A stretch of DNA of 64,000 nt from the NCBI GenBank assembly GCA_964608945.1, contig CAZSQB010000001.1, positions 3,211-67,210 on the forward strand. Direction: 5' to 3'. This stretch comes from an uncultured Gammaproteobacteria bacterium. GTDB lineage: Bacteria > Patescibacteriota > Microgenomatia > Levybacterales > UBA12049. Below are positions 7,639-59,611 of this stretch, in pieces; position 1 is the first letter of the stretch, and each line of letters opens with the position of its first letter. Below the pieces are notes generated by a model. That model was not told where the DNA came from and made no database searches. It was given only the letters and a program-made list of their open reading frames with translations. A program made the position numbers and the translations under genes.

Positions 7639-7644
7639 CAATTT

Positions 7645-9321: not shown

Positions 9322-9329
9322 AGGCGTTC

Positions 9330-26625: not shown

Positions 26626-26629
26626 CTTT

Positions 26630-32844: not shown

Positions 32845-32848
32845 ATTG

Positions 32849-34813: not shown

Positions 34814-34850
34814 CTATAATTTTCAATTTTCAATTTGAAATAAAACTTAA

Positions 34851-35909: not shown

Positions 35910-35914
35910 TTGAC

Positions 35915-36451: not shown

Positions 36452-37320
36452 TGAAAATTTTACTTATTGGAAAAAACGGACAACTTGGAGCAGAAATTAA
36501 TAAACAATCAGTTGAAAGAGGATATAGTATTCGTTCTTTCGGACATGAAAGACTTGATATTACAGATAATGAGAAAGTCAAATTAGAAATAGATAAATTC
36601 AAACCGGATGTGATTATTAACGCCTCTGCATTTCATGTTGTCCCGGAGTGTGAAGATAAACCAGACCAAGCTTTTTTAGTAAATGCAACCGCACTTAAAC
36701 CGGTTGCACAAATTTGTTCAGAGCAAAATATAAGATTTGTGCATTTTTCAACTGATTACGTTTTTGACGGACTAACAGGATCGCAATATCTTGAGGAAGA
36801 TAAGCCCAGTCCCGTACAAATGTATGGTATATCAAAAGTAGCGGGAGAATACATTATGCTTGCCTACTCTCAAACAAGCGTTGTAATAAGAAGCTCTGGA
36901 GTTTATGGAGGGGAAAAAGGAAGCAGGTCAAAAAAAGGAAATTTTGCTCTCAATATATTGAAACAAGCAGAAAAAGAGAATGTGATTGAAGTGGCATCAG
37001 AACAGATTGTTAATCCAACTTATGCGTTGGATTTGGCAAAAGCGACATTTGATCTTTTAGAGAGTAAAGACACCAGTGGTATTTACCATTTGGTTAATGA
37101 GGGCTATTGTTCTTGGGCGGATTTTGCGAAGGAAATTATTAAAATTAAAAATATGTCAACAAAAATCATTCCTGTTGATAGAGGAGGATTGGCAGGAACA
37201 CTGCGAAGACCGCTTTTTTCAGCGCTTAAAAACAATCGAGCGGCAAAACTCGGAATTAAACTCCCGATATGGCAAGACGCAATTAAAAGATACTGTCAGA
37301 CCATTAGTAAAGATGAATAA
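36451..37320 (+). CDS. rmlD: dTDP-4-dehydrorhamnose reductase.
   Basis: MKILLIGKNGQLGAE...PDVIINASAF...HFSTDYVFDG...YGISKVAGE. The start overlaps the rmlC stop (ATGA). Confidence 0.8.
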   Translation: MKILLIGKNGQLGAEINKQSVERGYSIRSFGHERLDITDNEKVKLEIDKFKPDVIINASAFHVVPECEDKPDQAFLVNATALKPVAQICSEQNIRFVHFSTDYVFDGLTGSQYLEEDKPSPVQMYGISKVAGEYIMLAYSQTSVVIRSSGVYGGEKGSRSKKGNFALNILKQAEKENVIEVASEQIVNPTYALDLAKATFDLLESKDTSGIYHLVNEGYCSWADFAKEIIKIKNMSTKIIPVDRGGLAGTLRRPLFSALKNNRAAKLGIKLPIWQDAIKRYCQTISKDE

Positions 37321-45172: not shown

Positions 45173-45796
45173 ATGATGGGTAAAAACAATAATCTTTATC
45201 GTAAAAAAGCAGAAACGCATTTAACCGAAAGCATCAAAGTTAAACAGGCAACGCTTGAAAAATGCATGAATTCAATTCTTGCTGCAGCTCAATTAATTGT
45301 GGATACTTTTTTATCCGGGGGTAAGGTTTTACTCTGCGGCAACGGTGGGAGTGCTGCCGATTGCCAGCACATGGCGACAGAACTTGTTAATACACTAGAT
45401 AAGAATTTTATTCGTCCCAGTCTGCCTGCCTTTGCCCTCACTACCGATACGTCAGTAATGACATCTTTTGCCAATGACTTTGGTTTTGATGGAGTCTTTG
45501 AACGCCAAATTCAAGGTTTGGGTAAGCCTAACGATTTATTAATAGGTCTCTCAACCAGTGGAAATTCCAAAAACATCATCAGAGCCATGACAGCGGCCAA
45601 TACTATCAAAATGCACACCCTGGCTTTAACCGGCAATTCCGGTAAACTACAAAAAATAGCAGATGTGGTAATTTCTATCCCTAGTAAAAATACACAATAC
45701 ATCCAAGAAGCACACTTGACTGTTGAACATATCCTTTGCGAATTGGTTGAGCATTATCTTTTTGTGGGTATAAAGAAAAAAGAACTATGGTCATAA
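45173..45796 (+). CDS. gmhA: Phosphoheptose isomerase (sedoheptulose-7-phosphate isomerase, SIS domain).
   Basis: LLCGNGGSAADCQHMATELV...LLIGLSTSGNSKNI...HTLALTGNSGKL, the diagnostic GmhA SIS motifs. Confidence 0.85.
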   Translation: MMGKNNNLYRKKAETHLTESIKVKQATLEKCMNSILAAAQLIVDTFLSGGKVLLCGNGGSAADCQHMATELVNTLDKNFIRPSLPAFALTTDTSVMTSFANDFGFDGVFERQIQGLGKPNDLLIGLSTSGNSKNIIRAMTAANTIKMHTLALTGNSGKLQKIADVVISIPSKNTQYIQEAHLTVEHILCELVEHYLFVGIKKKELWS

Positions 45797-46812
45797 GCAG
45801 AACTCCTTTTCGAATTTCTTTCTTTGGTGGAGGTACGGATTATCCTGCCTGGTATCGCAATAATGGTGGTGCAGTTCTCGCTACAACAATCAATAAGTAC
45901 TGCTACCTGAACGTAAGATTCCTGCCCCCTTTTTTTTGGCATAAATTTCGTATTGTCTATTCAAGGATAGAGAGTTGTAATACAATCGACGAAATTACTC
46001 ATCCAGCTGTGCGCGAAATTTTACGTTTCTTAAAGATTAATCAAGGATTAGAAATCCATCATGATGGTGATTTACCAGCCAGATCGGGACTCGGCTCTAG
46101 CTCTGCTTTTACAGTGGGACTTCTTAATGCACTTTATGCTCTGCTTGGGCATATGCCCAATAAGCACAACTTAGCAAAAGAAGGTATATACCTGGAACAA
46201 GAGGTTTTAAAAGAAACAGTTGGTTCTCAGGATCAAATCCTTGCGGCACATGGGGGTTTCAATCATATAACTTTTCATAAAAATGGGGAGATTACACTTA
46301 AACCTATAACCCTTTCTTCTAAGCGTATTAAGGAACTTGAAAATCATCTAATGTTATTCTATACAGGAATTCCTCGTATTGCTTCAAAAGTAGCTAAAAG
46401 CTATGTAAAAAAAATTAAAACCCGAGAAAAACAACTTAGCATTATGCAAGATTCGGTAGAAGAAGCTCTCTCCATTTTAACGGGTAAGCGCGATATGAAA
46501 AGTTTTGGTGAACTCTTAAACAAGTTTTGGCAAATAAAGAGAACCTTAAGCCCTCAAGTTTCCAATTCCACTATCGATGAAATTTATAAAAAATCCCTAT
46601 CTTCAGGCGCTATTGGGGGAAAGCTAATAGGTGCAGGCGGCGGCGGATTCTTACTTTTGTTTGTTCCTCCACGAAGTCAAAAAAAGGTAAGAGAAAGCTT
46701 AAAAAAACTTATTTATGTCCCTTTCAAATTTGAATCCCAAGGATCTCAAATTATCTTTTTTGACAGACAAGAAGATTACACAAACGAGATTAAACGCAAA
46801 CTCAGAACATGA
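45787..46812 (+). CDS. GHMP-family sugar kinase, HddA-like (D-glycero-D-manno-heptose 7-phosphate kinase-type).
   Basis: RTPFRISFFGGGTDYPAWY N-terminus typical of HddA/WcbL-like kinases. PARSGLGSSSAF is the GHMP ATP-binding motif. Overlaps the gmhA stop. Confidence 0.7.
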   Translation: MVISRTPFRISFFGGGTDYPAWYRNNGGAVLATTINKYCYLNVRFLPPFFWHKFRIVYSRIESCNTIDEITHPAVREILRFLKINQGLEIHHDGDLPARSGLGSSSAFTVGLLNALYALLGHMPNKHNLAKEGIYLEQEVLKETVGSQDQILAAHGGFNHITFHKNGEITLKPITLSSKRIKELENHLMLFYTGIPRIASKVAKSYVKKIKTREKQLSIMQDSVEEALSILTGKRDMKSFGELLNKFWQIKRTLSPQVSNSTIDEIYKKSLSSGAIGGKLIGAGGGGFLLLFVPPRSQKKVRESLKKLIYVPFKFESQGSQIIFFDRQEDYTNEIKRKLRT

Positions 46813-47813
46813 ATAAAAATCGTCATATCAGATGTGTACTTATCATTGGGATAAGTGGGTCTGGAGGTAGCTACCTTGCAGAGTATATAGTAAATAATCA
46901 CCCAAAAGTGGAAGTACATGGAATTTCCCGATGGCACTCAACCACAATAGATAATTTAGATAAGGTTCAAAGACAGGTTATCGTGCATGAAGCTGATTTA
47001 ATGGATATGGCTTCTGTAATTGAGGTTTTACAAAAAGTAAAACCTGACGCCATTTTTCATTTAGCAGCCCATGCAAATGTCAGAACTTCTTTTATAACAC
47101 CTACTTCGGTTTTAAGTAATAATATATTAGGTACCAGCAATCTTTTGGAAGCAATAAGGATTCTAAATATAAAGCCTATTGTACAAATTTGTAGTACTTC
47201 TGAAGTTTACGGCCAAGTAAATCCCAGAGATGTTCCAATCAAAGAGTTGTGCCCTTTAAATCCGATGAGCCCTTATGCCGTTTCCAAGACGACACAAGAT
47301 CTTTTAGGCGCTGTTTATTTTCGCGCGTATGATATGAAAATAATTCGCACCAGAATGTTTGCCTATATTAATCCTCGTAGAGAAGATCTTTTTGCTACCT
47401 TCTTTGCTATGCAGGTCGCACGTATTGAGGAAGGATTGCAGAAAGAACTTTTGCACGGCAACCTTGACTCTATCCGAACCCTGATTGATGTCCGTGACGC
47501 AATGGGGTCCTATTGGGTTGCGGTCGAAAAGTGCCGCTTCGGGCAGGTGTACAATATTGGGGGAAATACTGTAATTACAGTAGGAGAATTTCTAGATTTC
47601 TTAAGAAAGAAAGCGAAAGTTGCGATTCCCCTGCGCCTTTCTCCTAACTTACTTCGTCCCACTGACGTAACACTTCAAATCCCCGATGTTACAAAATTTA
47701 CTAAGGAAACTGGTTGGAGGCCGAAATATAGTTTTGAAGAGAGCGTAGAATTTTTATTGAATATTTGCAGGAGTACGGTGGCACGGAAAAACAGCGCGCG
47801 AAGCGCTAATTAA
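46809..47813 (+). CDS. NDP-sugar 4,6-dehydratase of the GDP-mannose dehydratase (GMD/DmhA) family.
   Basis: LIIGISGSGGSYLAEYIVNNHPKVEVHGISR, STSEVYG, SPYAVSK. The motif order and spacing match GMD. Confidence 0.75.
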   Translation: MNKNRHIRCVLIIGISGSGGSYLAEYIVNNHPKVEVHGISRWHSTTIDNLDKVQRQVIVHEADLMDMASVIEVLQKVKPDAIFHLAAHANVRTSFITPTSVLSNNILGTSNLLEAIRILNIKPIVQICSTSEVYGQVNPRDVPIKELCPLNPMSPYAVSKTTQDLLGAVYFRAYDMKIIRTRMFAYINPRREDLFATFFAMQVARIEEGLQKELLHGNLDSIRTLIDVRDAMGSYWVAVEKCRFGQVYNIGGNTVITVGEFLDFLRKKAKVAIPLRLSPNLLRPTDVTLQIPDVTKFTKETGWRPKYSFEESVEFLLNICRSTVARKNSARSAN

Positions 47814-47816
47814 ACA

Positions 47817-48992
47817 ATGTATAGATATAAATTAGCTGAAAGAATTATTGATAAAGAAGATATAGCTGCGTTCACTGCTTGGCTTAGTACAAAAGACAAT
47901 TCCCTGCCGCAGCTTACCAAGGGCCAATTGACCAATAAGCTTGAAATGAGTTGGGCTAAATGGGTTGGTACTAAATATGCGGTTTTTGTAAATTCCGGGT
48001 CCTCAGCTAACTTCCTGATGGCATATGCGGCTCTTCTTACAAAAAAGCTACGCAACAAAAAAGTTATTGTACCGAGTGTGGGATGGGTTACAACAATAAG
48101 CCCTTTTATGCAGCTTGGTTTCGAGCCCATAATGTGCGGAGCAAATCCCGATACTTTAGGGTTTGATCCCAATCACCTCGAAGCCTTGTTGAAAAAACAC
48201 CGACCGGCGCTGGTTATTATGGTTCATGTTCTAGGTGTACCTGATAATATGGACGTATTAAAGCATTTCCAGAAAAAGTATAAATTTATGCTATTGGAAG
48301 ACGCCTGTGCTGCTTTGGGTGCGGAATACGATGGTAAAAAGGTAGGAACGTTTGGTGATATGTCCTCCTTTTCTTTTTATTTTGGACACCAGCTCTCAAC
48401 TATTGAAGGCGGGATGATAAATACTAATAACAAAAAACTCTATGACCTGCTTGTGCTTTTACGAAGCCATGGGTGGGGCAAAGATTTGGACGAGAAAACT
48501 CACTTAAGATTAATGAAAAAATATAAGATAGATGGCTCCCATAAATCCTTCACGTTTTTTGTGCCGGGACTTAATCTGCGAAACACCGAGGTCGGTGCAT
48601 TTTTAGGGCTTCGCATGATGAAAAAAGCTGATCTGGTCACGAGAATTCGCAAGCGTAACCATTTAATATATGCCGCAAGCCTTAAAAATGTTACTTTTCA
48701 GAGGTGGAATAATAAGTCTGTGCCCTGTAGCATTTCGTTTGCTGTTCTCGCAAGAGATGGGGCACACCGAAAGGCATTAGTCAAGGAGCTTAACCGTAAC
48801 GGAATAGAGATACGCATATTTACGGCGGGGAATCTTGGCTTGCATCCTTTCTGGTTTGAAAATTATGGAAGATTTCATCATCCAGTTTCTGATGCAGTGT
48901 ACAGTCGTGGATTCTTTTTGCCAAACCATGAGTCGCTTGCGCCGCAAGATGTAAAATCAATTTGTAAGGTGGTGAACAAAGTAAATCTATGA
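47817..48992 (+). CDS. DegT-family PMP/PLP enzyme with His in place of the active-site Lys. Predicted NDP-4-keto-6-deoxy-sugar 3-dehydratase (ColD/E1-like).
   Basis: FSFYFGHQLSTIEGG. The His codon CAC at 48387..48389 aligns with the Lys of the aminotransferase FYATKSITSAEGG encoded at 31717..32844. The remainder is a typical DegT fold. Confidence 0.7.
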   Translation: MYRYKLAERIIDKEDIAAFTAWLSTKDNSLPQLTKGQLTNKLEMSWAKWVGTKYAVFVNSGSSANFLMAYAALLTKKLRNKKVIVPSVGWVTTISPFMQLGFEPIMCGANPDTLGFDPNHLEALLKKHRPALVIMVHVLGVPDNMDVLKHFQKKYKFMLLEDACAALGAEYDGKKVGTFGDMSSFSFYFGHQLSTIEGGMINTNNKKLYDLLVLLRSHGWGKDLDEKTHLRLMKKYKIDGSHKSFTFFVPGLNLRNTEVGAFLGLRMMKKADLVTRIRKRNHLIYAASLKNVTFQRWNNKSVPCSISFAVLARDGAHRKALVKELNRNGIEIRIFTAGNLGLHPFWFENYGRFHHPVSDAVYSRGFFLPNHESLAPQDVKSICKVVNKVNL

Positions 48993-49921
48993 AAGTTTTA
49001 GTTACCGGCGGTGCCGGCTACATCGGTTCTATACTAGTTCCTATGCTGCTTGAGAAAGGTGCCGCGGTAACGGTAGTGGACAATTTTTTTTATAACCAAA
49101 ATTCACTTCTAGACGTGTGTTATCATCCGAGACTAAAGGTTGTACGGGCAGATGCGCGGGGGGATAAACTCATGGCATCTTTAATGAAAGGACAAGACTA
49201 TATTTTGCCCCTGGCGTGTCTTGTGGGTGCGCCCCTTTGCGAGAAATTCCCGCAGGAAGCAAGAGCCGTAAATCTTGAAGCGATAAAAATGATTTTAAAA
49301 CTCCGAAAGCCTGGCCAGAAAATTATCTTTCCGAATACAAACAGCGGCTACGGCATTGGTAAGGCCGGGATTTATTGTAATGAGGCAACACCCCTTAGGC
49401 CGATTTCTTTATATGGACGGTTGAAAGTAGAAGCTGAAGAGGCGATACTTGCCGCCGGGAACGCCATTACTCTTCGCCTTGCGACCGTTTTTGGCATAAG
49501 TCCTAGAATGAGACTCGATCTTTTAGTGAATGACTTTGTTTACAGGGCTGTGCACGACGGCTATGTAGTCCTTTTTGAGGCAGGTTTTAAGCGAAATTAC
49601 ATTCACATTCGGGATGTAGCACGCGCATTTATCCATTGCATAGATAATTTCAAGAATTTGAAAAATGAACCCTACAATGTAGGACTAACGGATGCCAACC
49701 TTTCCAAACTAGAGCTTTGTGAGGAAATTAAAAGGCAGATTCCGGATTTTACTTTCGTTGTTTCTCCTATCGGTCGCGATCCGGATCAACGCAATTACAT
49801 TGTTTCAAACGTTAAGATAGAAAAGACTGGCTTTATGCCACAGATTTCTTTGCGAGACGGCATAACAGAGCTAATAAAGGGATATCAGATTATAAGGAGG
49901 CATGATTTTACCAACTTATGA
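48989..49921 (+). CDS. NAD(P)-dependent epimerase/dehydratase (extended SDR).
   Basis: MKVLVTGGAGYIGSILV...YGRLKVEAE (YxxxK). Confidence 0.7.
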   Translation: MKVLVTGGAGYIGSILVPMLLEKGAAVTVVDNFFYNQNSLLDVCYHPRLKVVRADARGDKLMASLMKGQDYILPLACLVGAPLCEKFPQEARAVNLEAIKMILKLRKPGQKIIFPNTNSGYGIGKAGIYCNEATPLRPISLYGRLKVEAEEAILAAGNAITLRLATVFGISPRMRLDLLVNDFVYRAVHDGYVVLFEAGFKRNYIHIRDVARAFIHCIDNFKNLKNEPYNVGLTDANLSKLELCEEIKRQIPDFTFVVSPIGRDPDQRNYIVSNVKIEKTGFMPQISLRDGITELIKGYQIIRRHDFTNL

Positions 49922-50871
49922 AGTTGCTGGAAATTTATAGAAAGCTTTATCTTATTCGGAGGAGCGAAGAATTGATTATTAAGCATTATAAAGAAAATGA
50001 AATGAAGACGCCCATGCATATGTCCATGGGTGAAGAAGCCATTGTAGTAGGAGTAGTCGCGGCTCTTCAAAAAAGAGATCAGGTGTTTGGTACTTATAGA
50101 AGTCATGGTTTATATCTGGCGAAGACCGATGATACGGATAAATTTTTTGCCGAACTTTACGGTAAGGTGACCGGTAGCGCTCGCGGAAGGGCGGGGTCAA
50201 TGCATCTTGCCTCGCCCAAGAATTGGATGATGCTTACCTCCGCAGTAGTAGGAACAACCATTCCCGCCGCAGTCGGAGCAGCACTGGCAAATAAATTTCT
50301 AAAGAACCAAAAGGTGGTTGCCTCATTTTTCGGCGATGGTGCGCTTAATGAGGGTGTTTTTTGGGAGAGTTTGAATTTCGCCTGCCTTAAAAAACTGCCA
50401 GTTCTTTTTGTATGCGAAGACAATAATTTTGCTATACACTCGCCAGTTGGCGAGCGCATAGGATATAAATCCATAGTGCAGGTGGTGTCGCAATTCTACT
50501 GTCATGTAGCTGGCAGTGATACTACCGACGTCTTTGAGATTTGTAGGGAAACTTCCGAGATGATTAAGAAAATGAAACAGACCGGCAAGCCGGGATTTCT
50601 TCACTTAAAATACTATCGGTATCTTGAGCATGTAGGCGTGGAGGAGGATTTTCATTTCGGTTATAGGTCAAGACAGGAATTTTTAAAGTGGAAAAGAGTC
50701 GATCCGCTGCTTGTCGCCCGAAGATATTTACTTCGCGCCCGCGTGAAAGAAAACGATATAACCGCCGAAGAATTTATTGTTGACCAAAATCTAGCTCAGA
50801 GTCTTAACAAAGCGCGAAAAGCGCCGTATCCAACCGATGCGGAGTTATTTGCTGATATATATGGCTCGTAG
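49918..50871 (+). CDS. Thiamine-diphosphate-dependent dehydrogenase E1 component, alpha subunit (PDH/acetoin-DH E1-alpha family).
   Basis: FFGDGALNEGVFWESLNFACLKKLPVLFVCEDNNFAI is the GDG-x(25-30)-NN TPP-binding motif. YRSHG. Confidence 0.8.
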   Translation: MKLLEIYRKLYLIRRSEELIIKHYKENEMKTPMHMSMGEEAIVVGVVAALQKRDQVFGTYRSHGLYLAKTDDTDKFFAELYGKVTGSARGRAGSMHLASPKNWMMLTSAVVGTTIPAAVGAALANKFLKNQKVVASFFGDGALNEGVFWESLNFACLKKLPVLFVCEDNNFAIHSPVGERIGYKSIVQVVSQFYCHVAGSDTTDVFEICRETSEMIKKMKQTGKPGFLHLKYYRYLEHVGVEEDFHFGYRSRQEFLKWKRVDPLLVARRYLLRARVKENDITAEEFIVDQNLAQSLNKARKAPYPTDAELFADIYGS

Positions 50872-51907
50872 AATCATTACCTTTGAAAAAGCGGTTAACG
50901 AAGCTATTTTTTTGGAAATGAAACGCGACAAACGCGTTTTCCTTTTCGGTCTTGACGTAACAGATCATAAGAGAATTTTTGGTACAACTGAGGGGTTGGA
51001 GATATTCGGCAGGAACAGGTTTTTTGGAACGCCGCTTTCTGAGGACGCTATGATCGGCGTCGCGCTCGGAGCGGCGATAACGGGGTTAAGACCAATCCAC
51101 GTTCATATACGCGTTGACTTTCTCCTTTTGGCAATGAATCAACTTATAAATATGGTTGCCACAACGGCCTTTGGCAGCGCTGGAAAGTTAAAAGCACCTC
51201 TGGTTATTAGGGCAATTATTGGGCGCGGATGGGGTCAGGGATTTCAACATTCTAAATCATTGCAATCAGTATTTGCTCATATGCCTGGTCTTAAAGTCGT
51301 AATGCCGTCTCGGCCGTCGGACGCCAAGGGATTATTAATATCGGCAATTCGGGACGATAATCCCGTAATTTTTTTGGAGCATCGATGGCTTTATTGGCTG
51401 CAAGGAGATGTGCCGTCGAATGCATACACCATACCGCTTGGGGAATCGTGCATTTTGAGAGCTGGCCGCGACATTACCATCGTGGCAACATCATGGATGA
51501 ACGTTGAGGCCGCGAAAGCTGCGGAGATTCTTTCACGCATACACGGCGTCGAAGCAGAAATCATTGATGTTAGAACAATATACCCCCTTGACGACGAAGC
51601 AATCGTAAAGTCCGTGATAAAGACAGGTCGCTTAATCGTGGCCGATTACGATTGGGAATTCTGTGGATTTAGCGCCGAAGTTGCAGCACGTGTCGCTGAG
51701 AAATGTTTTAATAAATTGAAGTCACCTGTAAGTAGAATCGCCTTTCCTCATACGTCATGTCCCACCACGCGTCCGCTGGAAAACGCATTTTATCCCAATG
51801 CTGCAACTATCATTCGCGAGGTTGAAAAGAAATTGGGGCTCGCGAGAGCGGACTTGCGAAGCGAGGATTTTTATAGTTGGGAGAATAGGTTTAAAGGACC
51901 TTTTTAA
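50861..51907 (+). CDS. TPP-dependent dehydrogenase E1 component, beta subunit (transketolase-like Pyr plus C-terminal domains).
   Basis: FGLDVTDHKRIFGTTEGL...FGTPLSEDAMIGVALGAAITGLRPI...GQGFQHSQSLQSVFAHMPGLKVVMPS. ATG at 50861 is preferred over the track's 50837; it overlaps the alpha stop by 11 nt. Confidence 0.75.
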   Translation: MARRIITFEKAVNEAIFLEMKRDKRVFLFGLDVTDHKRIFGTTEGLEIFGRNRFFGTPLSEDAMIGVALGAAITGLRPIHVHIRVDFLLLAMNQLINMVATTAFGSAGKLKAPLVIRAIIGRGWGQGFQHSKSLQSVFAHMPGLKVVMPSRPSDAKGLLISAIRDDNPVIFLEHRWLYWLQGDVPSNAYTIPLGESCILRAGRDITIVATSWMNVEAAKAAEILSRIHGVEAEIIDVRTIYPLDDEAIVKSVIKTGRLIVADYDWEFCGFSAEVAARVAEKCFNKLKSPVSRIAFPHTSCPTTRPLENAFYPNAATIIREVEKKLGLARADLRSEDFYSWENRFKGPF

Positions 51908-51908
51908 A

Positions 51909-53096
51909 ATGAAAAAATTAAACTGGCCACTCATGAAAAAAAATATTTTAAGGGAAGATTTAGATGCTGTTGTAAAATTTCTTAAAGCTAAAGATGATCT
52001 AATTCTTACCCAATCTAAGAATGTGCGAAAATTTGAAGAAGAATGGTCCAAGTGGCTAGGGGTCAAATACAGTGTTTTAGTTAACTCCGGTGCATCAGCC
52101 AATCTTTTAAGCATCTTAGCAATTCGGCAAATGTATGGTTTGGGTGAGATAATTGTTCCTCCGTTAACTTGGGTATCTGATATTGCATCTGTTATCCAGT
52201 GTGGTTTCAAACCAGTGTTTGTGGATATCAATCCAAGGACACTTGGGATGGATAATGAGCTAGTTTTGAGAAAAATTACCCGTAATACAAAGGCTGTTTT
52301 TTTGACCCATATCTTAGGAATAAACGGCCTCAGTCAAAAATTGTTGGACGAATTGCGCGCAAAAAAAATTCCGCTTGTTGAAGACGTTTGTGAATCATAC
52401 GGAGCAACTTTTAAAGGAAAAAAGCTAGGCACATTTGGCCTTATATCAAATTTTTCTTTCTACTATGCTCATCATATGAGTAGTATTGAAGGAGGAATGA
52501 TTTCCACAAATGATCCTGACATATACGAGATGATCCGTATGGGGCGTAGCCATGGAATGGTACGTGAGGCTGATTCGGAGTCACTAAAAAAATCTTATCA
52601 AAAAAAATATCCTGATCTAAATCCAGATTTTATATTTGCATTTCCAGCATATAATATGCGCTCTACTGAAATAAATGCTGTCATAGGATTATCTCAACTT
52701 CGAAGGCTTTCTAAAAACAATAAAATTCGTTCAAAAAATTTAAAAATATTTTTATCAAATCTGAATCCTAACATATACCAAACAGACTTTGAGACCCGCG
52801 GTAGTTGTAACTATGCATTTGTTTTAGTTCTGAAACAACCTAGTCCCTTACTTGCAAAGAAAGTTATGAGGACGCTTAACGCTTATGGTGTCGAGTTTCG
52901 TAGGGGAACTTCAGGTGGAGGAAATCAGTTAAGGCAACCCTATTTAAGAAAGATTGTTGGCGATAAAGAGTATAAAAAATATCCAAATGTTGAGCATATA
53001 CACTTTTATGGCCTTTATATTGGTAACTACCCTACCTTAGAAGAGAAGAAAATTTACAAGTTGTGCGATGTTCTAAATAATCTTAAGAAGTCGTAG
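51909..53096 (+). CDS. Second DegT-family enzyme with His in place of Lys. Predicted sugar 3-dehydratase (ColD/E1-like).
   Basis: FSFYYAHHMSSIEGG (His codons at 52470..52475). ATG at 51909 lies immediately after the E1-beta stop; the track start at 51798 is a read-through. Confidence 0.7.
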   Translation: MKKLNWPLMKKNILREDLDAVVKFLKAKDDLILTQSKNVRKFEEEWSKWLGVKYSVLVNSGASANLLSILAIRQMYGLGEIIVPPLTWVSDIASVIQCGFKPVFVDINPRTLGMDNELVLRKITRNTKAVFLTHILGINGLSQKLLDELRAKKIPLVEDVCESYGATFKGKKLGTFGLISNFSFYYAHHMSSIEGGMISTNDPDIYEMIRMGRSHGMVREADSESLKKSYQKKYPDLNPDFIFAFPAYNMRSTEINAVIGLSQLRRLSKNNKIRSKNLKIFLSNLNPNIYQTDFETRGSCNYAFVLVLKQPSPLLAKKVMRTLNAYGVEFRRGTSGGGNQLRQPYLRKIVGDKEYKKYPNVEHIHFYGLYIGNYPTLEEKKIYKLCDVLNNLKKS

Positions 53097-53097
53097 C

Positions 53098-54051
53098 ATG
53101 AAAAAGAATAAAGTCTTAGTTTGCGGAGCCAGTGGATTCATTGGTCGCAATATTGCAGAAAGGCTAGGTAAACGCCCTGATATGAAGGTTTATGGAACCT
53201 ATTTTGAAACAAAGCCCAGTATAAAAGGTATTTCTTTGATTAGAGTTGATTTAACAAATAAATCAGAAGTTAGCCAAATTGTCAGGGGTATGGATATTGT
53301 AATCCAGGCGGCTGCAGTAACCTCAGGATCAAAAGATATTGTTACAAAACCATACATTCATGTTACAGATAATGCTATTATGAATAGCCTAATTTTTAAG
53401 TCATGCTTTGATAATCGCGTTAAACATGTTGTATTTTTTAGTTGCACAGTAATGTATCCAAGCAAAAATAATCCTGTAAAAGAGGAGGATTTTAATTATG
53501 AAATTACGGATAAATATTTCGGTGTTGGATGGACAAAAGTATATTTGGAAAAGATGTGTGAGTTCTACTCAAGGATTGGTAATACAAAATATACGGCCAT
53601 AAGACACACAAATATTTATGGTCCCTTTGATAAATACGACTTAGATAAATCTCATTTTTTTGGAGCAACAATAACTAAGGTTTTACGAGCCCGCGATAAC
53701 GAGATTGTTATTTGGGGAGACGGATCTGAAGAAAGAGATCTACTTTATGTTTCAGATTTAGTCGATTTTATTGAGATAGTTTTAAAAAAACAAAAAGAAC
53801 CATTCGAGTTAATTAACATAGGACTAGGAAAGAGTTTTTCTGTAAAAGATGTGATAGGCAAAATTATTGAAATTTCCGGTAAAAATAAAAGCATGGAATT
53901 TGACACCTCAAAGCCCACAATTAAATTTAATTTGGCTGTTAATATTGAGAAAGCACGAAAAAAATATAACTTTAGACCAAAGATTTCTCTTGAAAAAGGA
54001 ATAAAAAAAACAATATCTTGGTATAAGAAAAGCTTTTTAGAAAAAAAATAA
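53098..54051 (+). CDS. NAD(P)-dependent epimerase/reductase (GDP-fucose-synthase-like SDR).
   Basis: KVLVCGASGFIGRNIA...YLEKMCEFY. No 4,6-dehydratase signature, hence a reductase/epimerase call. Confidence 0.65.
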   Translation: MKKNKVLVCGASGFIGRNIAERLGKRPDMKVYGTYFETKPSIKGISLIRVDLTNKSEVSQIVRGMDIVIQAAAVTSGSKDIVTKPYIHVTDNAIMNSLIFKSCFDNRVKHVVFFSCTVMYPSKNNPVKEEDFNYEITDKYFGVGWTKVYLEKMCEFYSRIGNTKYTAIRHTNIYGPFDKYDLDKSHFFGATITKVLRARDNEIVIWGDGSEERDLLYVSDLVDFIEIVLKKQKEPFELINIGLGKSFSVKDVIGKIIEISGKNKSMEFDTSKPTIKFNLAVNIEKARKKYNFRPKISLEKGIKKTISWYKKSFLEKK

Positions 54052-55074
54052 ATGAGAAATACCAAACACAACTTCTATAGAGGTAAAAATGTACTTGTTA
54101 CCGGTGGGACTGGTTTAATAGGAAGACCCTTGGTGGAAATGCTTATTGAGGCCCAAGCTAAGGTAAGGGTTGTTTCTTTGGATGCTCCCTCAAGAGCCCA
54201 TCCTGCGGCGGAATTTTTAAGGTTGGATCTTACTGATGTCAATAATTGCCTAAAAGCTGCTCGGGGAATGAATTACGTGTTTCACCTTGCTGGTATAAAA
54301 GGGTCTCCGAAAATGACCAAAGAGCGTCCAGCAAGTTTCTTTGTCCCGACAATTCTTTTCAATACCAATATGATGGAGGCGGCAAGGCGAACAGGCGTCA
54401 AACACTATCTTTATACAAGTACTATTGGGGTATATGCTCCGGCCGAAGTATTTTATGAAGATGATGTATGGAAGAGTTTTCCTTCTGAAAATGACAAATT
54501 TGCTGGATGGGCAAAGCGTATGGGAGAACTTCAGGCGCAGGCATATAGAATAGAATACGGCTGGAATAAGATTTCCATTTTGAGACCTGCGAATGTGTAC
54601 GGACCTTACGACAACTTTGATCCGGAAAACGCCATGGTAATACCTTCAATCATCGCGCGCTCGCTTGGCGGAGAAAATCCGCTCGTGGTATGGGGTGACG
54701 GAACGCCTATTCGCGATTTCATTCATGCCAAAGACGTAGCGCGAGGAATGATGATGGCTATTGAAAAACGAGTTAATGTCCCAGTTAATTTAGGTAGTGG
54801 TACCGGAGTAACAATAAAACAGATTGCAGAAACAATTGCAAAGTTTGTTCCGGGAGAGCCTATTAAAATTGTTTGGGATAAAAGTAAGCCGATGGGTGAC
54901 AAGAAAAGATTGATGGATATAACAAGGGCAAAAAAACTTCTTGGATTTAAGCCAATAATGTCGCTTGATGAGGGAATTAAAGAAACCATAGATTGGTATC
55001 TAAAAAACAAATCTCTATTGAATAAAAGATATAATATTTTCAATGAACCCAAATCTAAAAAGAAAAAAAAGTAA
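54052..55074 (+). CDS. NAD(P)-dependent epimerase/reductase (GDP-L-fucose synthase family-like SDR).
   Basis: NVLVTGGTGLIGRPLVE...YAPAEV...WAKRMGE...RPANVYGPYDNFDPENAMVIPS. Confidence 0.7.
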   Translation: MRNTKHNFYRGKNVLVTGGTGLIGRPLVEMLIEAQAKVRVVSLDAPSRAHPAAEFLRLDLTDVNNCLKAARGMNYVFHLAGIKGSPKMTKERPASFFVPTILFNTNMMEAARRTGVKHYLYTSTIGVYAPAEVFYEDDVWKSFPSENDKFAGWAKRMGELQAQAYRIEYGWNKISILRPANVYGPYDNFDPENAMVIPSIIARSLGGENPLVVWGDGTPIRDFIHAKDVARGMMMAIEKRVNVPVNLGSGTGVTIKQIAETIAKFVPGEPIKIVWDKSKPMGDKKRLMDITRAKKLLGFKPIMSLDEGIKETIDWYLKNKSLLNKRYNIFNEPKSKKKKK

Positions 55075-55813
55075 TTATTTGATTACCGGTTCTGGAAGTG
55101 GTCTAGGTAAGTATTTTCATGATCAATTAGGGGGGACTTCCTTTAATAGAGATTTTGGGAATGTCGACGAAACAGAAGTACTTATTCATTGCGCTTTTAA
55201 TCTAGCAAGAGAAGTTAATTCCAAAGATCTTTACCAATACCTTCTTGATAATTTTTTTTTAACAAAAAAATTAGCTATAATTCCCCATAAAAAATTTATT
55301 TACGTATCATCAGTGGATGTGTACCCAAAAAATAACAAAAAACATTCTGAAAACGAAATAATAGATGTCAATCAAATATCTGGTTTTTACGGGGTAACCA
55401 AGCTTATGTCAGAAAGCCTAATTCAAAATCTTTGTCCGAACTTTTTGATACTAAGATGCTCAGCACTTCTTGGGAAGGATGCACGCACAAATAGTTTGAA
55501 AAAAATAATAAGAGAAGAGAATCCTACTTTAACTTTATCTTCCGAATCTGTATTCAATTTTATTTTACACAAGGACGTTTTAGAATTTGTAAAGATAGCA
55601 ACTGAAAAAGATCTACAAGGAGTATATAATTTAGTATCATCAGAAAATATCACCCTTTTCCAAATAGCAGAATTACTTGGAAAAAAAGTTAGCTTTGGAA
55701 GTTATATGTACAACGTAGGAGAAATAGATAATAAAAAGGCTTCTTTGGTGGCTTCGTCTTTTAAAAAGACCTCGCGGGAGATAGTAATTGAATTCATGGA
55801 TTTAATATCATGA
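55043..55813 (+). CDS. Short NAD-dependent epimerase/dehydratase-like protein (divergent SDR).
   Basis: YLITGSGSGLGKYF Rossmann motif, YGVTKLMSE (YxxxK). 256 aa. The start overlaps the upstream gene by about 30 nt and may lie further downstream. Confidence 0.5.
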   Translation: MNPNLKRKKSNYLITGSGSGLGKYFHDQLGGTSFNRDFGNVDETEVLIHCAFNLAREVNSKDLYQYLLDNFFLTKKLAIIPHKKFIYVSSVDVYPKNNKKHSENEIIDVNQISGFYGVTKLMSESLIQNLCPNFLILRCSALLGKDARTNSLKKIIREENPTLTLSSESVFNFILHKDVLEFVKIATEKDLQGVYNLVSSENITLFQIAELLGKKVSFGSYMYNVGEIDNKKASLVASSFKKTSREIVIEFMDLIS

Positions 55814-56472
55814 AAACGACTCTTTTTATCCCAACTTTAAATGAAATAGACGGCATGAAAGCTATCATGCCGCGCGTAAAAAAACAGTGGGTCGATGAAA
55901 TCTTGGTGCTCGACGGCAACTCTTCGGACGGCACGGTAGAATATGCTAAATCACTGGGCTATCGAGTCGTCATGCAAAAATCAAAAGGCATCACAAATGC
56001 TTATCGTGAAGCCTTAAAAATCGCTAAAGGCGACATCATTGTGGCTTTTAGCCCGGATGGAAATTCACTGCCAGAGGTCATACCCGAACTGGTCCGGAAA
56101 ATGAAGGAAGGTTACGACATGGTAATCGCCTCCCGGTACATAGGGGGAGCAAAAAGCGATGATGATGATCCGGTCACGGCTTTCGGTAATTGGATGTTTA
56201 CAACATTAATCAATATAGCTTTTGGTGGGAACTATACGGATTCGCTTGTAATGCTCCGAGCATTTAAGAAAGATATCGTTCAAGAACTTCACATCGATGT
56301 TCCGCGGGCCGGAATGGAACCGATTCTATCGATTCGATGCGCCAAGCAAAAACTAAAAGTCGCCGAAATTCCGGCCTCTGAGCCCAAACGCATTGGCGGC
56401 ACACGCAAGATGAATCCCCTTTTAAACGGCTTGGATATTCTCCGCTTGATCTTTGCGGAGCTGATGCACTAA
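55810..56472 (+). CDS. GT2 polyprenyl-phosphate sugar synthase (GtrB/ArnC/DPM1-like, short form).
   Basis: TLFIPTLNEIDGMK...ILVLDGNSSDGT...AFSPDGNSLPE. Noticeably GC-richer than the flanking genes. Confidence 0.75.
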   Translation: MKTTLFIPTLNEIDGMKAIMPRVKKQWVDEILVLDGNSSDGTVEYAKSLGYRVVMQKSKGITNAYREALKIAKGDIIVAFSPDGNSLPEVIPELVRKMKEGYDMVIASRYIGGAKSDDDDPVTAFGNWMFTTLINIAFGGNYTDSLVMLRAFKKDIVQELHIDVPRAGMEPILSIRCAKQKLKVAEIPASEPKRIGGTRKMNPLLNGLDILRLIFAELMH

Positions 56473-56543
56473 CCCAGACGCAGAAAAAATTCTAATCTGT
56501 GCCGCCGCCGCTATGTATTGCGCATTTCCAATTTTTAGGTATA

Positions 56544-58937
56544 ATGATCCAATTGGAGATTATAGGTTTAAGGAAATTAAAAAGGGCAAACAAAATTCTT
56601 GCTTTGATCGAGAATCGGCCATGGATTGTTTTTGTCGCGCTTTTAGTAGTCATCCTCTTTTTATTCCGCGGACTTTTTAATTCGTATTTTGAAGCGGATG
56701 AATGGTTTCATTTTACATATTACTTTCCGCTTACAAAAAGACCCGATGGGTTTTTAACAGCAATAATATCGACAATTATTAACTCGGGTCCCTTATCCGC
56801 GGGACAACATGTTGTTCCCGTTGCTTCCGCAATATATTTCCTGAATACAAAATTTTTTGGCATGAATTATGCACCTTATGCGTTTATGTCTTTGTCTCTT
56901 CATGCAGTAAATAGCTTTTTGGTATTCGTATTTATAAAAACTTTGTTACATAGAAAAGATATAATAACTAAAAATGTTTTCGCGCTTCTAGGCGCTGTTT
57001 TTTTTGCTCTTTCTCCACAGCATTCTCATACAATAACAGGCGCAGCCCCGTTTTACGGTCAGAATATTTTGTCTGTGACCTTTTTCCTATTATGTATTAT
57101 TTCATTTAAGCTTGCATATCTTCGTGAAAATAAAAAATTCATATACCTTTCTATACTTTTTCTTTTCTTATCACTTTTCACTAAGGAAACGGCAGTCTTT
57201 CTTTTTGTGCTCCTTCCGTTTATGGCTATAATCGAAAAAAAGGGTCTGCCTGCCAGCAGGCCCCGCACCGCTCTGGTGCAGGGCAGGCAGGTTTTTCCTC
57301 TGAAATTTTTAGGTAAACTGTTCATCCTAAGTTTAATTATATATGCGACATTTAGATTTTTAGTTCCGAATATTTATTATGGTGTTGGCCCGCTTGTTGA
57401 CAAACTAGTTGGAAATTATGTTTCGTCATCACTTCCGTCTTGGCAACAGCAGTCGCGCGAAACACCAAAAGTTCCTGATACTGGAACAATTGTTAGCACC
57501 GATCTTTCGATTCACAAGAATCTTCTGGGAGAAATTTTGTTTCGCAGCGTGACTTTTCCTGTAAAAATGACAGGAACTCTTTTTTTGCCAAGACAAACAG
57601 TATTTTCTATTGTCCAGTTTATTACGCCAATTGTTCAACCTGTGCCGCCTGGTGGAGATAGCGCGGATATGTCTCAAGCCCGACTTACATTTTTGTACGG
57701 TCCGGGAAATGGCTTCATTATTTACATAGTAGGTATTGGTATTATTATTTTTTGTGCAAGAGAGTATTTTAGCTTTGTTCGAGGGAAAAAGATAGAGGAG
57801 GCAAGAACACTCGCAACAGGATTTGCAATGATTGTTTTAAGCTCGCTGCCTTTGGTTGCAATTATATTTTCCTTTCCTCGTTGGGGATATGATTTTTATT
57901 TTGACTCGCGGTTTTATTATAATCCCAATGTCGGCGCGGCTATTATTTTCCCGTTTTTACTCTTGGGTTTTTCGGAGTTTATTTCCAAATCGTTTCAAAA
58001 GAAGACAGTTGTTCCCCTGATAGCTTTTACACTTTTCACTCTTTGGCTGATTAATAATATTGCTGTACTAAATGTAAGTATCAGGTATTTCACCCAGAAT
58101 TTTCAACCGGATCGACGGGAGGTCGTAGAACAGTTGAAAAAATATCTTCCAAGCCTTCCTAAGATTACTGTTTTCTATATTGAAACAGATGGTCTGAGTG
58201 CTTATGGTCCGAGTCTTCCATTTCAGACAGGCGTTGCCCCAGCGCTTAGCGTAGTTTATTATGATAACAACCCCTTACCGAATAGTTTTTTTAATAAACC
58301 ACTTTTTGATGGCAAGAAAGAAGGTTATTTATATTCGCAAGGTCGTGGATTTGGATATTATATATCTAAGAAGACGCTTGCAGAAGCGCTTCTTGCAAGT
58401 AAATTTAAGGTTTCTGATATCCGCGCTTTTTACTATAAAGCACAAGATGTAAAACTTATCGATACAACAGGCGAAGTTAGGGCAGAAATGGATAGCTATC
58501 TTACAGCTGCAAAAGAAAATTCTGATTGGAAAAACTACCTTGATCTTTCAACAGGGTTATCATTTTATTACCCTTCTCAAGCGGATATAGAAGAAGTGCC
58601 GCAAGATAGCGCGCAAAGCACAGCAACGTCGTTTGCAATTATTAGTCCAATATTTACCATAAGAATGACAATTTTCAATGTAACGCCTGCTTTTGCAGTG
58701 AATGAATACTCACAAATTCTGACAAACGGTAAATTAGGTATTGTTAATTCGCGAAAAGTTTCATATGATAAGTTTCATTATAATGACAGCCTAATTGTAA
58801 ATAACAATGGAAAAATTGAGTATTTAATTAAGCTTAATGATAGGTTAATAATAGTTGAAACAGAAAACCAGGACGCTGAGTCAATTTTAGCAGTAGAAAA
58901 GATTGCAGGTTCAGTTGAAATTATTAAGAAAGAATGA
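56544..58937 (+). CDS. Large GT-C-like membrane protein (about 797 aa) with a C-terminal extracytoplasmic domain. Probable partner transferase of the upstream GtrB-like GT2.
   Basis: FRGLFNSYFEADEWFHFTYYFPL (DE-type loop motif) and many TM segments. ATG at 56544 has AGGT 6 nt upstream; the track's 56499 start is less likely. Contains the GC-rich palindrome at 57246..57290. Confidence 0.65.
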   Translation: MIQLEIIGLRKLKRANKILALIENRPWIVFVALLVVILFLFRGLFNSYFEADEWFHFTYYFPLTKRPDGFLTAIISTIINSGPLSAGQHVVPVASAIYFLNTKFFGMNYAPYAFMSLSLHAVNSFLVFVFIKTLLHRKDIITKNVFALLGAVFFALSPQHSHTITGAAPFYGQNILSVTFFLLCIISFKLAYLRENKKFIYLSILFLFLSLFTKETAVFLFVLLPFMAIIEKKGLPASRPRTALVQGRQVFPLKFLGKLFILSLIIYATFRFLVPNIYYGVGPLVDKLVGNYVSSSLPSWQQQSRETPKVPDTGTIVSTDLSIHKNLLGEILFRSVTFPVKMTGTLFLPRQTVFSIVQFITPIVQPVPPGGDSADMSQARLTFLYGPGNGFIIYIVGIGIIIFCAREYFSFVRGKKIEEARTLATGFAMIVLSSLPLVAIIFSFPRWGYDFYFDSRFYYNPNVGAAIIFPFLLLGFSEFISKSFQKKTVVPLIAFTLFTLWLINNIAVLNVSIRYFTQNFQPDRREVVEQLKKYLPSLPKITVFYIETDGLSAYGPSLPFQTGVAPALSVVYYDNNPLPNSFFNKPLFDGKKEGYLYSQGRGFGYYISKKTLAEALLASKFKVSDIRAFYYKAQDVKLIDTTGEVRAEMDSYLTAAKENSDWKNYLDLSTGLSFYYPSQADIEEVPQDSAQSTATSFAIISPIFTIRMTIFNVTPAFAVNEYSQILTNGKLGIVNSRKVSYDKFHYNDSLIVNNNGKIEYLIKLNDRLIIVETENQDAESILAVEKIAGSVEIIKKE
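57246..57290 (+). repeat. Third GC-rich imperfect palindrome (CTGCCTGCC...GCACC...GGTGC...GGCAGGCAG) in-frame, encoding LPASRPRTALVQGRQ.
   Basis: The outer arms CTGCCTGCC / GGCAGGCAG are identical to those of the 39457 and 44481 elements. The sequence context is also the same (KK-x-LPA ... GRQ). Confidence 0.7.
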
Positions 58938-59611
58938 AGAAAAATAAAAAGAATTTTGAGAAATATTACTTTGAGGGATATTACAAAGGGATAGGGGATT
59001 TTAGTGTCAAACGAGATCGCGAGCTTTCAAATTGGTTTCGCGGGATGCTCGAATACATTAATAAATTTTATCCTATAAAGAATGGTAGAGGTAGAAAGTT
59101 AATTGAATTTGGTTGTGCAACAGGAGCAGCCGCAAATTTACTTGCCGATTATGGATTTAGTGTTTTCTCAAGCGATGTATCAAAATACGCTGTAAATTTA
59201 GCAGCGAAAAATTATCCGGATATAAAATTCATCGTCCATGATATGCAAAAACAATTCATGAAGGATGAGAATTTTGATGTAGCCGTTGCATTTGATGTAA
59301 TAGAACACTTGAAAGATCCAGAAATGTCTCTTAGGAATACTTATAAGATATTAAAACATGGTGGGACTATAATTCTAACAACACCCAATGATTACAAACA
59401 CATGTCAAATGATCCGACCCACATAAGCGTCAAGAAGCCTAATGAGTGGAGAAAAATTATGAGGAGGGTTGGCTTTAAGAACATTATGATTAAGCAAGTT
59501 GCATTTATTCCTTATTTTTACAGATTCCACTGGAGGTTGAATTACGCACTGCCGATAGCAATTTCATCGCCTTATGTAATTTCACCGGTTGTAATTATTG
59601 CTAAAAAATGA
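58934..59611 (+). CDS. Class I SAM-dependent methyltransferase.
   Basis: KLIEFGCATGAAANLLADYGFSVFSSDVS...FDVAVAFDVIEHL...LKHGGTIILT. Confidence 0.7.
   Translation: MKKNKKNFEKYYFEGYYKGIGDFSVKRDRELSNWFRGMLEYINKFYPIKNGRGRKLIEFGCATGAAANLLADYGFSVFSSDVSKYAVNLAAKNYPDIKFIVHDMQKQFMKDENFDVAVAFDVIEHLKDPEMSLRNTYKILKHGGTIILTTPNDYKHMSNDPTHISVKKPNEWRKIMRRVGFKNIMIKQVAFIPYFYRFHWRLNYALPIAISSPYVISPVVIIAKK

Follow-up and report, generated by a model that had tools for sequence, protein, structure and literature searches.

The E1 alpha/beta enzymes of the alpha-KADH2 class put pyruvate-derived two-carbon (C2) branches on keto sugars. Its members include AviB1/AviB2 of avilamycin, Pau11/Pau12 of paulomycin, the aldgamycin pair and KbDH-alpha/beta of kibdelomycin, the last of which was given pyruvate and cyclic ketones in an in vitro assay; sugar enzymes of this class have been described for secondary metabolites only, mostly of actinomycetes, in about 120 biosynthetic gene clusters (BGCs) (PMC4753412, PMC12247030). 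Branched sugars of lipopolysaccharide (LPS) are ascribed to YerE-type enzymes (PMC9306805, PMC12247030). In the heptose pathways of Campylobacter jejuni, Cj1427 is a GDP-heptose C4-dehydrogenase with tightly bound NAD(H) that is recycled by alpha-ketoglutarate, and Raushel's group has shown that Cj1427 and the C. jejuni ColD-like C3-dehydratase together produce GDP-3-deoxy-4-keto-heptose in vitro (PMC10680097). Here we analyze a 64-kb stretch of contig CAZSQB010000001.1, referred to as the window, in which 13 tightly packed genes on the + strand (45173-58937) combine an E1 alpha/beta pair with homologues of GDP-heptose enzymes. Our preferred reading, to which we assign a probability of about 0.55, is that this pair would attach a pyruvate-derived C2 branch to C4 of a GDP-4-keto-(3-deoxy)heptose.

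An E1 alpha/beta pair coupled to a Cj1427-like gene

Families were assigned to the open reading frames (ORFs) of the window by Pfam, NCBIfam and PDB searches. The thiamine pyrophosphate (TPP)-binding E1 alpha subunit, part of the proposed sugar-branching carboligase (49918..50871, + strand; E1_dh, 1e-47), carries the GDG-X25-30-NN cofactor motif in the form GDGALNEG...CEDNN. The E1 beta subunit (50837..51907, + strand, probable start 50861 with MARRIITF) consists of Transket_pyr and Transketolase_C domains, includes the motif GTPLSEDAMIG with the cofactor-activating Glu, and scores 296 bits on the PRK09212 model (cut-off 321). Homology to characterized E1 proteins shows the TPP site of the pair to be competent, while the branching reaction itself is one that we infer.

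The top NCBIfam models for the pair are the E1 alpha and beta subunits of pyruvate dehydrogenase (PDH), E1-alpha has thousands of close relatives, and source annotations give homologues as acetoin or pyruvate dehydrogenase. It is nevertheless next to negligible as a prospect that an ordinary catabolic E1 of PDH, acetoin dehydrogenase or branched-chain keto acid dehydrogenase (BCKDH) lies in this glycan locus by chance. All scores on these models stay below the equivalog cut-offs, and the identity of E1-alpha is about 30% with the solved subunits of PDH and BCKDH and about 35%, at most 37%, with plasmid-borne AcoA-type proteins. Searches with E. coli AceF and Lpd (tblastn, E<=1e-3) gave no match in the window and 97 related loci (1.7 Mb; individual loci are cited below by L numbers), and no E2/E3 Pfam family was detected among the window ORFs. 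Moreover, both E1 genes overlap their neighbours, and synteny with GDP-heptose genes is kept across many bacterial phyla and archaea. The absence of E2/E3 genes, the low identity and the conserved synteny lead us to reject a catabolic PDH or acetoin role; the distinction from PDH, acetoin and BCKDH enzymes with E2/E3 partners, on which the sequence-only reading of this DNA had staked its sugar pathway, thus stands. Two comparators were discarded: the Thermus acoA plasmid was not useful as a catabolic contrast since it has no E2/E3 genes either, and the E1 pair of a Streptomyces griseofuscus plasmid lies in a polyketide/non-ribosomal peptide context, not a sugar one. A phage collection yielded only distant AcoA-like matches.

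The E1-alpha start is overlapped by 4 nt by the fifth gene of the cassette (48989..49921, + strand), a short-chain dehydrogenase/reductase (SDR) that matches PDB entries 6VO6/6VO8 with E 8e-108. The match to 6VO6 is full-length (308 residues aligned, about 58% identical, 363 bits). The 6VO6 sequence is a 313-aa C. jejuni protein, which by the name of the entry we take to be Cj1427. At this level of similarity the fifth gene is assigned as a Cj1427-type C4-dehydrogenase, predicted to keep the 6-OH, and its presence would make a 4-keto acceptor possible without 6-deoxygenation. The sequence-only reading had placed an SDR before E1-alpha, which was right at family level and is refined here. Its predicted 3,6-dideoxy product is not established, because the enzyme coupled to E1-alpha is Cj1427-like and the role of the second candidate 4-keto-forming enzyme, described below as GMD-H, is ambiguous.

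Organization and conservation of the cassette

All ORFs listed in the sequence-only reading were found at the coordinates it gave, and Pfam, NCBIfam and PDB searches bore out the families. The conserved block extends beyond 58937 to 63114, adding a methyltransferase gene and an AftD-like GT-C gene. Throughout 45173-63114 neighbouring ORFs overlap by 4-32 nt or sit 0-3 nt apart, with overlaps at 45787/45796, 46809/46812, 48989/48992, 49918/49921, 50837-61/50871, 55043/55074, 55810/55813, 58934/58937 and 59608/59611. Synteny with the cassette is found in the close relatives L090, L091, L096 and L097, whose E1-alpha proteins are 85% (L090), 75% (L091) and 87% (L097) identical to that of the window; L090 has the window's gene order through the AftD-like GT-C gene, minus ColD2, the second of two ColD-like genes. 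Since the same gene order recurs in L090, L091 and L097, the arrangement is not due to chance. A scan for promoters and terminators returned counts equal to those in shuffled sequence. We lean, at slightly better than even odds, towards a single operon that would make and export a C-branched deoxyheptose for a surface glycan in a Microgenomates-type bacterium of the Candidate Phyla Radiation (CPR).

Related loci in bacteria and archaea

The E1-alpha subfamily motifs YRYLEHVG and F[VI]CEDN were searched in the GTDB species-representative genome collection (185,579 species). At least 562 stretches matched, the best 80 of which are 49-64% identical and come from CPR phyla, Nanoarchaeota, Thermoplasmata, Omnitrophota, Planctomycetota, Nitrospirota, Desulfobacterota, Chloroflexota, Acidobacteriota and others. 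Judged by these motifs, hundreds of uncultured species of bacteria and archaea have the same module. E1 pairs in sugar loci, which the sequence-only reading had called rare, are therefore rare in the literature only.

ORFs of the related loci were classified against the window proteins and a few seeds, and counts refer to 83 non-redundant loci. E1-alpha and E1-beta are paired in 81 of them, an HddC-GmhB fusion occurs in 36 and an RmlC-like cupin in 38. The gene that most often directly precedes E1-alpha matches 7us5, the GDP-heptose 4,6-dehydratase of C. jejuni, with E 1e-89. A DdahA-like or a Cj1427-like gene is found in 73/83 loci and the two are nearly mutually exclusive (DdahA-like only in 54, Cj1427-like only in 18, both in 1, neither in 10). 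By homology, these are alternative makers of GDP-4-keto-heptose beside the E1 pair. Their gene contents differ: the Cj1427-only loci have a DegT gene in 16/18 cases, no split transketolase and rarely a cupin, whereas in the DdahA-type loci E1-beta is directly followed by a split transketolase in 24/54 and a cupin is present in 33/54. An aldo-keto reductase gene follows in L097 and in many DdahA-type loci.

The split transketolases (Transketolase_N plus pyr/C) follow the E1 pair in, for example, L006, L008, L010, L012, L014, L018 and L024; enzymes of this kind have been proposed to add hydroxyacetyl branches, the bioinformatic BGC cases all coming from Streptomyces (PMC12247030). Their frequency in DdahA-type loci, the transketolase-type domains of E1-beta and the acetoin or pyruvate dehydrogenase annotations of the homologues would fit a role of the pair in precursor supply, either as a transketolase-like source of sedoheptulose-7-P or as a PDH/acetoin-type source of acetyl groups for O-acetylation. 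We consider such a role highly improbable: the true split transketolases accompany the E1 pair and do not replace it, the pair is coupled to keto-sugar-forming SDRs and not to GmhA, neither E2/E3 genes nor a lipoyl protein were found in the 1.7 Mb, and the block has no acyltransferase. In L036, L052 and L055 the subfamily pair has beside it another E1 alpha/beta pair, which is divergent (23-40% identical).

A minimal set is found in a cultured organism. Plasmid AZO_p6 of Azospirillum lipoferum 4B encodes an HddC-GmhB fusion, a Cj1427-like protein (58%), E1-alpha (41%), E1-beta (50%) and a ColD-like protein (FSFFFSHHISTMEGG) among LPS-type genes, and A. thermophilum has the same core. Taking these loci together, we propose, as a possibility falling a little short of even odds, a large, hitherto undescribed cross-domain family of GDP-heptose C-branching systems in which the E1 pair is fed by a Cj1427-type or a DdahA-type enzyme and which make nine-carbon branched (deoxy)heptoses for cell-surface glycans. 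The hosts of this family would include CPR bacteria, DPANN and Thermoplasmata archaea, Omnitrophota, Planctomycetota, Nitrospirota, Desulfobacterota and Azospirillum.

Two ColD-like 3-dehydratases and the GMD-family SDR

Two genes of the cassette encode pyridoxamine phosphate (PMP)-dependent 3-dehydratases of the ColD type: ColD1 (47817..48992, + strand; DegT, 1.5e-66) and ColD2 (51909..53096, + strand, 51909 being the most likely start). For both, ColD is the top PDB match (ColD1, 2gms: E ~1e-54 to 1e-55, 189 bits; ColD2: E ~1e-57 to 3e-57, 197 bits), and the column of ColD His188, pinned by the H188N mutant entry 3b8x, is occupied by the His of SFYFGHQ in ColD1 and of FYYAHH in ColD2. Scores reach only 111-115 bits against the Fe-S E1 dehydrase (RfbH/DdhC) and at most 119 bits against aminotransferases. 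ColD1 and ColD2 share 32% identity with each other and each about 33-35% with ColD. The ColD-type His is present in 26/30 DegT proteins across the surveyed E1 loci. The prediction that the His-type DegT proteins are 3-dehydratases was thus upheld, both grouping with ColD and not with aminotransferases.

When the two DEHYDRATASES of the window were compared with the close relatives L090, L091 and L097, each type was found to occur without the other. ColD1 orthologues are present in L090, L091, L017, L027 and L034; the ColD1 type stands alone in L090, L091, L017 and L027, with no ColD2 in L090 or L091, and the sole DegT gene of L097 lies after E1-beta and is 89% identical to ColD2. Because close relatives carry ColD1 or ColD2 alone, one ColD-type gene is predicted to suffice, with ColD1 and ColD2 as alternative or redundant copies. 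The idea that two dehydratases mean two deoxygenations is unsupported by these relatives; of what the sequence-only reading said on this point, the two His-type enzymes are kept and two separate dehydrations are not implied. In L097, two GIY-YIG ORFs of about 93 aa (4305-4583 and 5517-5804) flank the Cj1427-like gene, one in the place of ColD1 and the other before E1-alpha, and might represent mobile elements through which the cassette is reshuffled. About 5 kb past the 3' end of the window (L087, 11222-12454), the opposite strand encodes a further DegT-fold protein that seems to have His where the Lys would be (FFGSHILTAAGNGG).

The remaining candidate for 4-keto formation is a GMD/Rmd-family SDR, here named GMD-H (46809..47813, + strand; GDP_Man_Dehyd, 1e-66). 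Its PDB matches are Rmd (2pk3, 4.7e-53, 184 bits) and the C. jejuni heptose 4,6-dehydratase DdahA (7us5, 5e-50, 174 bits), and it is 46% identical to DdahA-like proteins. With the dehydratases GMD-H has the RW..DN insert and the PRR motif in common, but it has AYIN in place of their THxG. It is probably, though not definitively, a GDP-heptose 4,6-dehydratase paralogue that provides, as in C. jejuni HS:3/HS:4, a further entry that leads to 6-deoxy sugars.

The co-occurrence of 4,6-dehydratase-like and C4-dehydrogenase-like genes could alternatively reflect two interleaved pathways with two products, in which GMD-H, a ColD-like and a GFS-like enzyme would make a GDP-3,6-dideoxyheptose as in C. 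jejuni HS:5 while the Cj1427-like enzyme and the E1 pair would make a branched 6-hydroxy heptose. Both types of gene are present in the HS:3/HS:4 clusters of C. jejuni, which make 6-deoxy as well as 6-hydroxy heptoses (PMC10680097), and it would fit that the window has ColD-like and GT-C genes in duplicate and three terminal SDRs. We nonetheless regard this arrangement as unlikely, since close relatives have one ColD gene only, the polyprenyl-phosphate GT2 is single, and the GMD-H type, found in 7/18 of the Cj1427-only loci, occurs solely with Cj1427-like genes and the E1 pair, which suggests one integrated pathway.

Origin of the heptose and its nucleotide carrier

The cassette opens with a GmhA-like sedoheptulose-7-P isomerase (45173..45796, + strand) with the CGNGGSAADCQH motif (GNGGSAADCQH), an SIS_2 match of 8e-24 and NCBIfam scores of 208 bits (phosphoheptose isomerase) and 187 bits (gmhA), both below the equivalog cut-offs. 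It is followed by an HddA/WcbL-like heptose-7-P (anomeric) kinase with GHMP N and C domains (45787..46812, + strand). The top PDB matches of the kinase are the heptose-7-P kinases 4n3o, 4usk (WcbL) and 3k85 with E 1e-36, whereas other GHMP kinases including fucokinase reach only E 1e-13; kinase homologues, mostly 50-57% identical, are present in 45/83 E1 loci. The isomerase profiles and kinase matches agree with the heptose entry point originally suggested for this cassette.

Thus, of the four GDP-heptose enzymes the window encodes GmhA and the HddA-like kinase only. The observation that the block has no GmhB or nucleotidyltransferase gene was confirmed and, for GmhB and HddC, holds across the whole window. 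The window has a single nucleotidyltransferase gene (34025-34813), which is RfbF-like and unlikely to stand in for HddC: the CDP-glucose model gives it 251 bits and the HddC model 69 bits, and it heads its own RmlC/RmlD group. This group forms a separate deoxyhexose module (31717-37320) whose + strand encodes the RfbF-like glucose-1-P cytidylyltransferase together with an SDR, RmlC and RmlD, and which also has divergently transcribed genes for an RmlB-like dehydratase and a true Lys-type aminotransferase. HddC/GmhB genes lie inside the cassette of the relatives L091, L001 and L092. In L091 a 240-aa nucleotidyltransferase is encoded upstream and a 163-aa GmhB-like haloacid dehalogenase (HAD) protein downstream, so that the GDP-heptose route is complete in that cassette. 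Because all modifying enzymes belong to GDP-sugar families and relatives have HddC/GmhB in their cassettes, we infer GDP as the nucleotide carrier. The sequence-only reading had left the carrier unresolved; this was correct as to the missing genes, and the enzyme families and related loci point to GDP.

A putative branching pathway and its alternatives

In the pathway that we propose, GmhA and the HddA/WcbL-like kinase would convert sedoheptulose-7-P to D-glycero-D-manno-heptose 1,7-bisphosphate, as suggested by the homology of both enzymes, and GmhB and HddC, presumably encoded beyond the window, would yield GDP-heptose. The Cj1427-like SDR, with its 58% identity to a characterized enzyme, is predicted to oxidize C4 to give GDP-4-keto-heptose, from which either ColD-like PMP enzyme would remove the 3-OH to give GDP-3-deoxy-4-keto-heptose; GMD-H might add a 6-deoxy series, which is uncertain. 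By gene context and by the precedent of AviB1/B2, Pau11/12 and KbDH, an E1 alpha/beta heterotetramer would then decarboxylate pyruvate on TPP and transfer the hydroxyethylidene carbanion to the C4 ketone, creating a 4-C-acetyl tertiary alcohol. The GFS-like SDRs and the short SDR would epimerize and/or reduce the ring or branch ketone, the methyltransferase may decorate the sugar, and the GT2 would load it onto polyprenyl phosphate for transfer outside the membrane by the two GT-C enzymes. The core of the earlier proposal, that is heptose entry, 3-dehydration, a TPP-dependent C2 branch, a polyprenyl-phosphate GT2 and a GT-C transferase, withstood the tests that were run; the 3,6-dideoxy product is not established, two deoxygenations are unsupported, and the system is not rare in genomes.

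Several observations weigh against this pathway. No GmhB-like HAD phosphatase or HddC was found in the 64-kb window, nor in the 6 kb downstream of it that short Logan contigs cover. GMD-H and the Cj1427-like SDR in one cassette leave the order of steps and the question of 6-deoxygenation ambiguous. Searches of the literature available for this analysis brought up no account of a natural C4-branched heptose and nothing specific on an E1 pair in heptose loci. Finally, an ORF of roughly 200 aa separates the dehydratase gene from that of E1-alpha in about 12 DdahA-type loci (e.g. L020, L022, L026, L035, L038, L042, L045, L066, L082, L083), and the three submitted to Pfam (L022, L026 and L083) are NUDIX hydrolases. 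In NUDIX-bearing loci GDP may be gone before the TPP step, the acceptor then being a free or phospho-sugar.

This last finding bears on a further alternative, in which the pair would perform other TPP chemistry on the same substrates, with a different donor or at a different carbon of a GDP-heptose-derived keto sugar or its de-nucleotidylated form. Possible variants are hydroxypyruvate or 2-oxobutyrate as donor, a DXP-synthase-like chain extension of an aldehyde, or an AcoAB-like C-C cleavage of an alpha-hydroxyketone. In addition to the NUDIX genes, a CMP-sugar-type cytidylyltransferase gene in 6/83 loci, the score of E1-alpha on the DXP_synthase_N model and the varied donors accepted by YerE-type enzymes (PMC9306805) are consistent with it. 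However, pyruvate as donor and C2 units as branches are apparently the limit of the known alpha-KADH2 sugar enzymes (PMC12247030), neither a NUDIX nor a CMP-transferase gene is present in the window, and the E1 pair adjoins C4-keto-forming enzymes specifically. We therefore rate other TPP chemistry as unlikely and retain pyruvate-derived branching at C4 as the preferred reading.

Terminal reductases, glycosyltransferases and methyltransferase

Downstream of ColD2 lie two GDP-fucose-synthase (GFS)-like SDR genes, both encoding epimerase/reductase candidates (53098..54051, + strand: Epimerase 2e-41, Fcl model 134 bits, GFS-type PDB matches; 54052..55074, + strand: Epimerase 2e-48, Fcl model 153 bits, GFS PDB matches 1e-33). 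Homologues of the latter type occur in 57/83 loci and of the former in 47/83. They are followed by a short RmlD/SDR-like reductase gene (55043..55813, + strand; RmlD_sub_bind and Epimerase, ~34 bits each), which is syntenic in L090, L096 and L001. L097 has the aldo-keto reductase gene in its place, directly after the SDR10 orthologue, and a 49%-identical homologue of the short SDR further downstream. The short SDR is a candidate reductase for the branch ketone.

The putative polyprenyl-phosphate glycosyltransferase of family GT2 (55810..56472, + strand; Glycos_transf_2, 1.5e-20) is AglJ/DPM1/GtrB-like. It consists of 220 aa with no transmembrane segment and scores 122 bits on AglJ (cut-off 325), 79 bits on Dol-P hexose transferase (cut-off 375) and 46 bits on ArnC. 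Its gene is syntenic in L090, L091, L096 and L097, and homologues of about 50% identity occur in other phyla.

The next gene (56499..58937, + strand) encodes a membrane protein of 812 aa as called, or 797 aa from the probable start at ~56544. Pfam gave no significant match. An AlphaFold model from 45 homologues (predicted local distance difference test 86, predicted TM-score 0.83) had full-length Foldseek matches to STT3, PglB, ArnT, Pmt4 and ALG12 (E 1e-5 to 8e-2) and to no other full-length fold, and an acidic motif near the N-terminus, FEADEW, is nearly invariant in the family. The family has 83 members, and those with a source name are from CPR bacteria (Patescibacteria, Roizmanbacteria, Levybacteria). 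The assignment as a GT-C fold membrane glycosyltransferase, made earlier from the sequence, is supported by this model despite the lack of a Pfam match.

The conserved block ends with a SAM-dependent methyltransferase gene (58934..59611, + strand; Methyltransf_23, 6e-23) and an AftD-like GT-C membrane glycosyltransferase gene (59608..63114, + strand; GT-C_AftD, 27.8 bits, cut-off 26), both of which are in the same place in L090. A second AftD-like GT-C protein of 1170 aa is encoded just past the 3' end of the window (L087).

Other features of the window

The window as a whole is a low-GC (~0.35) glycan super-locus with genes mostly on the + strand and more than 12 genes for PMT_2/GT-C membrane proteins. 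At least 10 paralogous PMT_2/YfhO-type GT-C genes lie at 4273-15544, 19017-20657 and 23765-28363, with GT2 and GT4 genes between them. The GC content of 48800-51800, which covers the Cj1427-like and E1 alpha/beta genes, is mostly 0.44-0.47 with one 600-nt bin at 0.40, whereas ColD2 and the following SDR gene (51800-54200) have 0.33-0.38 as in the rest of the window. This contrast may reflect strong constraint on the core module or its acquisition by lateral transfer.

A GC-rich palindromic element (CTGCCTGCCGGCAGGCAG...) lies in frame within three large membrane-protein genes (39467-39484, 44491-44508 and 57246-57296); there are 5 matches where chance would give 0.12. Within the GT-C gene of the cassette it accounts for about 16 extra residues that are not in the family consensus and lie in a low-confidence loop of the model.

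Comparison with known systems

What is new here is best described as a putative E1 alpha/beta branching module that would act on GDP-heptose in surface-glycan operons and is very widespread in uncultured lineages. If true, this would be the first role beyond secondary metabolism for the E1 alpha/beta sugar-branching class, and the sugars made would constitute a new class of natural monosaccharides. A two-carbon-branched heptose would then be a common surface-glycan unit across many uncultured lineages, among them the ultra-small organisms of the CPR and DPANN; to our knowledge, almost nothing is known about the envelope chemistry of these groups. The enzymatic route would be open to test, as substrates could be made with available C. 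jejuni enzymes, Azospirillum lipoferum 4B would serve as a culturable test organism, and the pairs could provide new carboligases for chiral tertiary alcohols.

For the GDP-heptose part, the closest counterpart is the capsular heptose system of C. jejuni, since of its enzyme classes (GmhA, HddA, GmhB, HddC, Cj1427, DdahA, the HS:5 C3-dehydratase and GFS-like C4-reductases) the window has homologues of all except GmhB and HddC (PMC10680097, PMC10440746). The C. jejuni heptose-modification enzymes listed in PMC10680097 include no TPP enzyme, however, and C. jejuni uses cytoplasmic glycosyltransferases and ABC-type capsule export, whereas the cassette has a polyprenyl-phosphate GT2 and GT-C proteins. 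With ColD, the GDP-4-keto-6-deoxy-D-mannose 3-dehydratase of the colitose pathway, both DegT proteins share the replacement of the Schiff-base Lys by His, but their substrate is likely a heptose, and two paralogues are present in one operon and are interchangeable in relatives. The combination of a GT2 similar to Dol-P hexose transferase and AglJ with subsequent GT-C proteins resembles GtrB/ArnC/DPM1 acting with ArnT, PMT or STT3/PglB; it differs in that the 220-aa GT2 has no membrane anchor and the 797-aa GT-C family has no Pfam model.

The yersiniose system with YerE/YerF, and likewise ErwE and MygE, resembles the proposed pathway in its surface-glycan destination and in its logic: a PMP-dependent 3-dehydratase forms a 3-deoxy-4-keto NDP-sugar, to which a TPP enzyme adds an acyl group at C4 before reduction (PMC9306805). 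YerE, however, is a single-chain enzyme of the decarboxylase/acetolactate synthase type that acts on CDP-3,6-dideoxy-4-keto-glucose supplied by an E1/E3 Fe-S dehydratase, whereas the cassette has an E1 alpha/beta pair, enzymes of the GDP sugar family and ColD-type dehydratases.

By architecture and gene context, the pair itself resembles alpha-KADH2: a two-subunit E1 without E2/E3 lies beside NDP-keto-sugar enzymes and is followed by ketoreductase candidates, and the aldo-keto reductase after the E1 pair of L097 and many DdahA-type loci recalls Pau7. The known alpha-KADH2 enzymes belong to dTDP-deoxyhexose pathways in actinomycete secondary-metabolite clusters, while the pairs described here belong to the GDP-heptose family, lie in a polyprenol/GT-C glycan operon, and have CPR, DPANN and many uncultured phyla as hosts.

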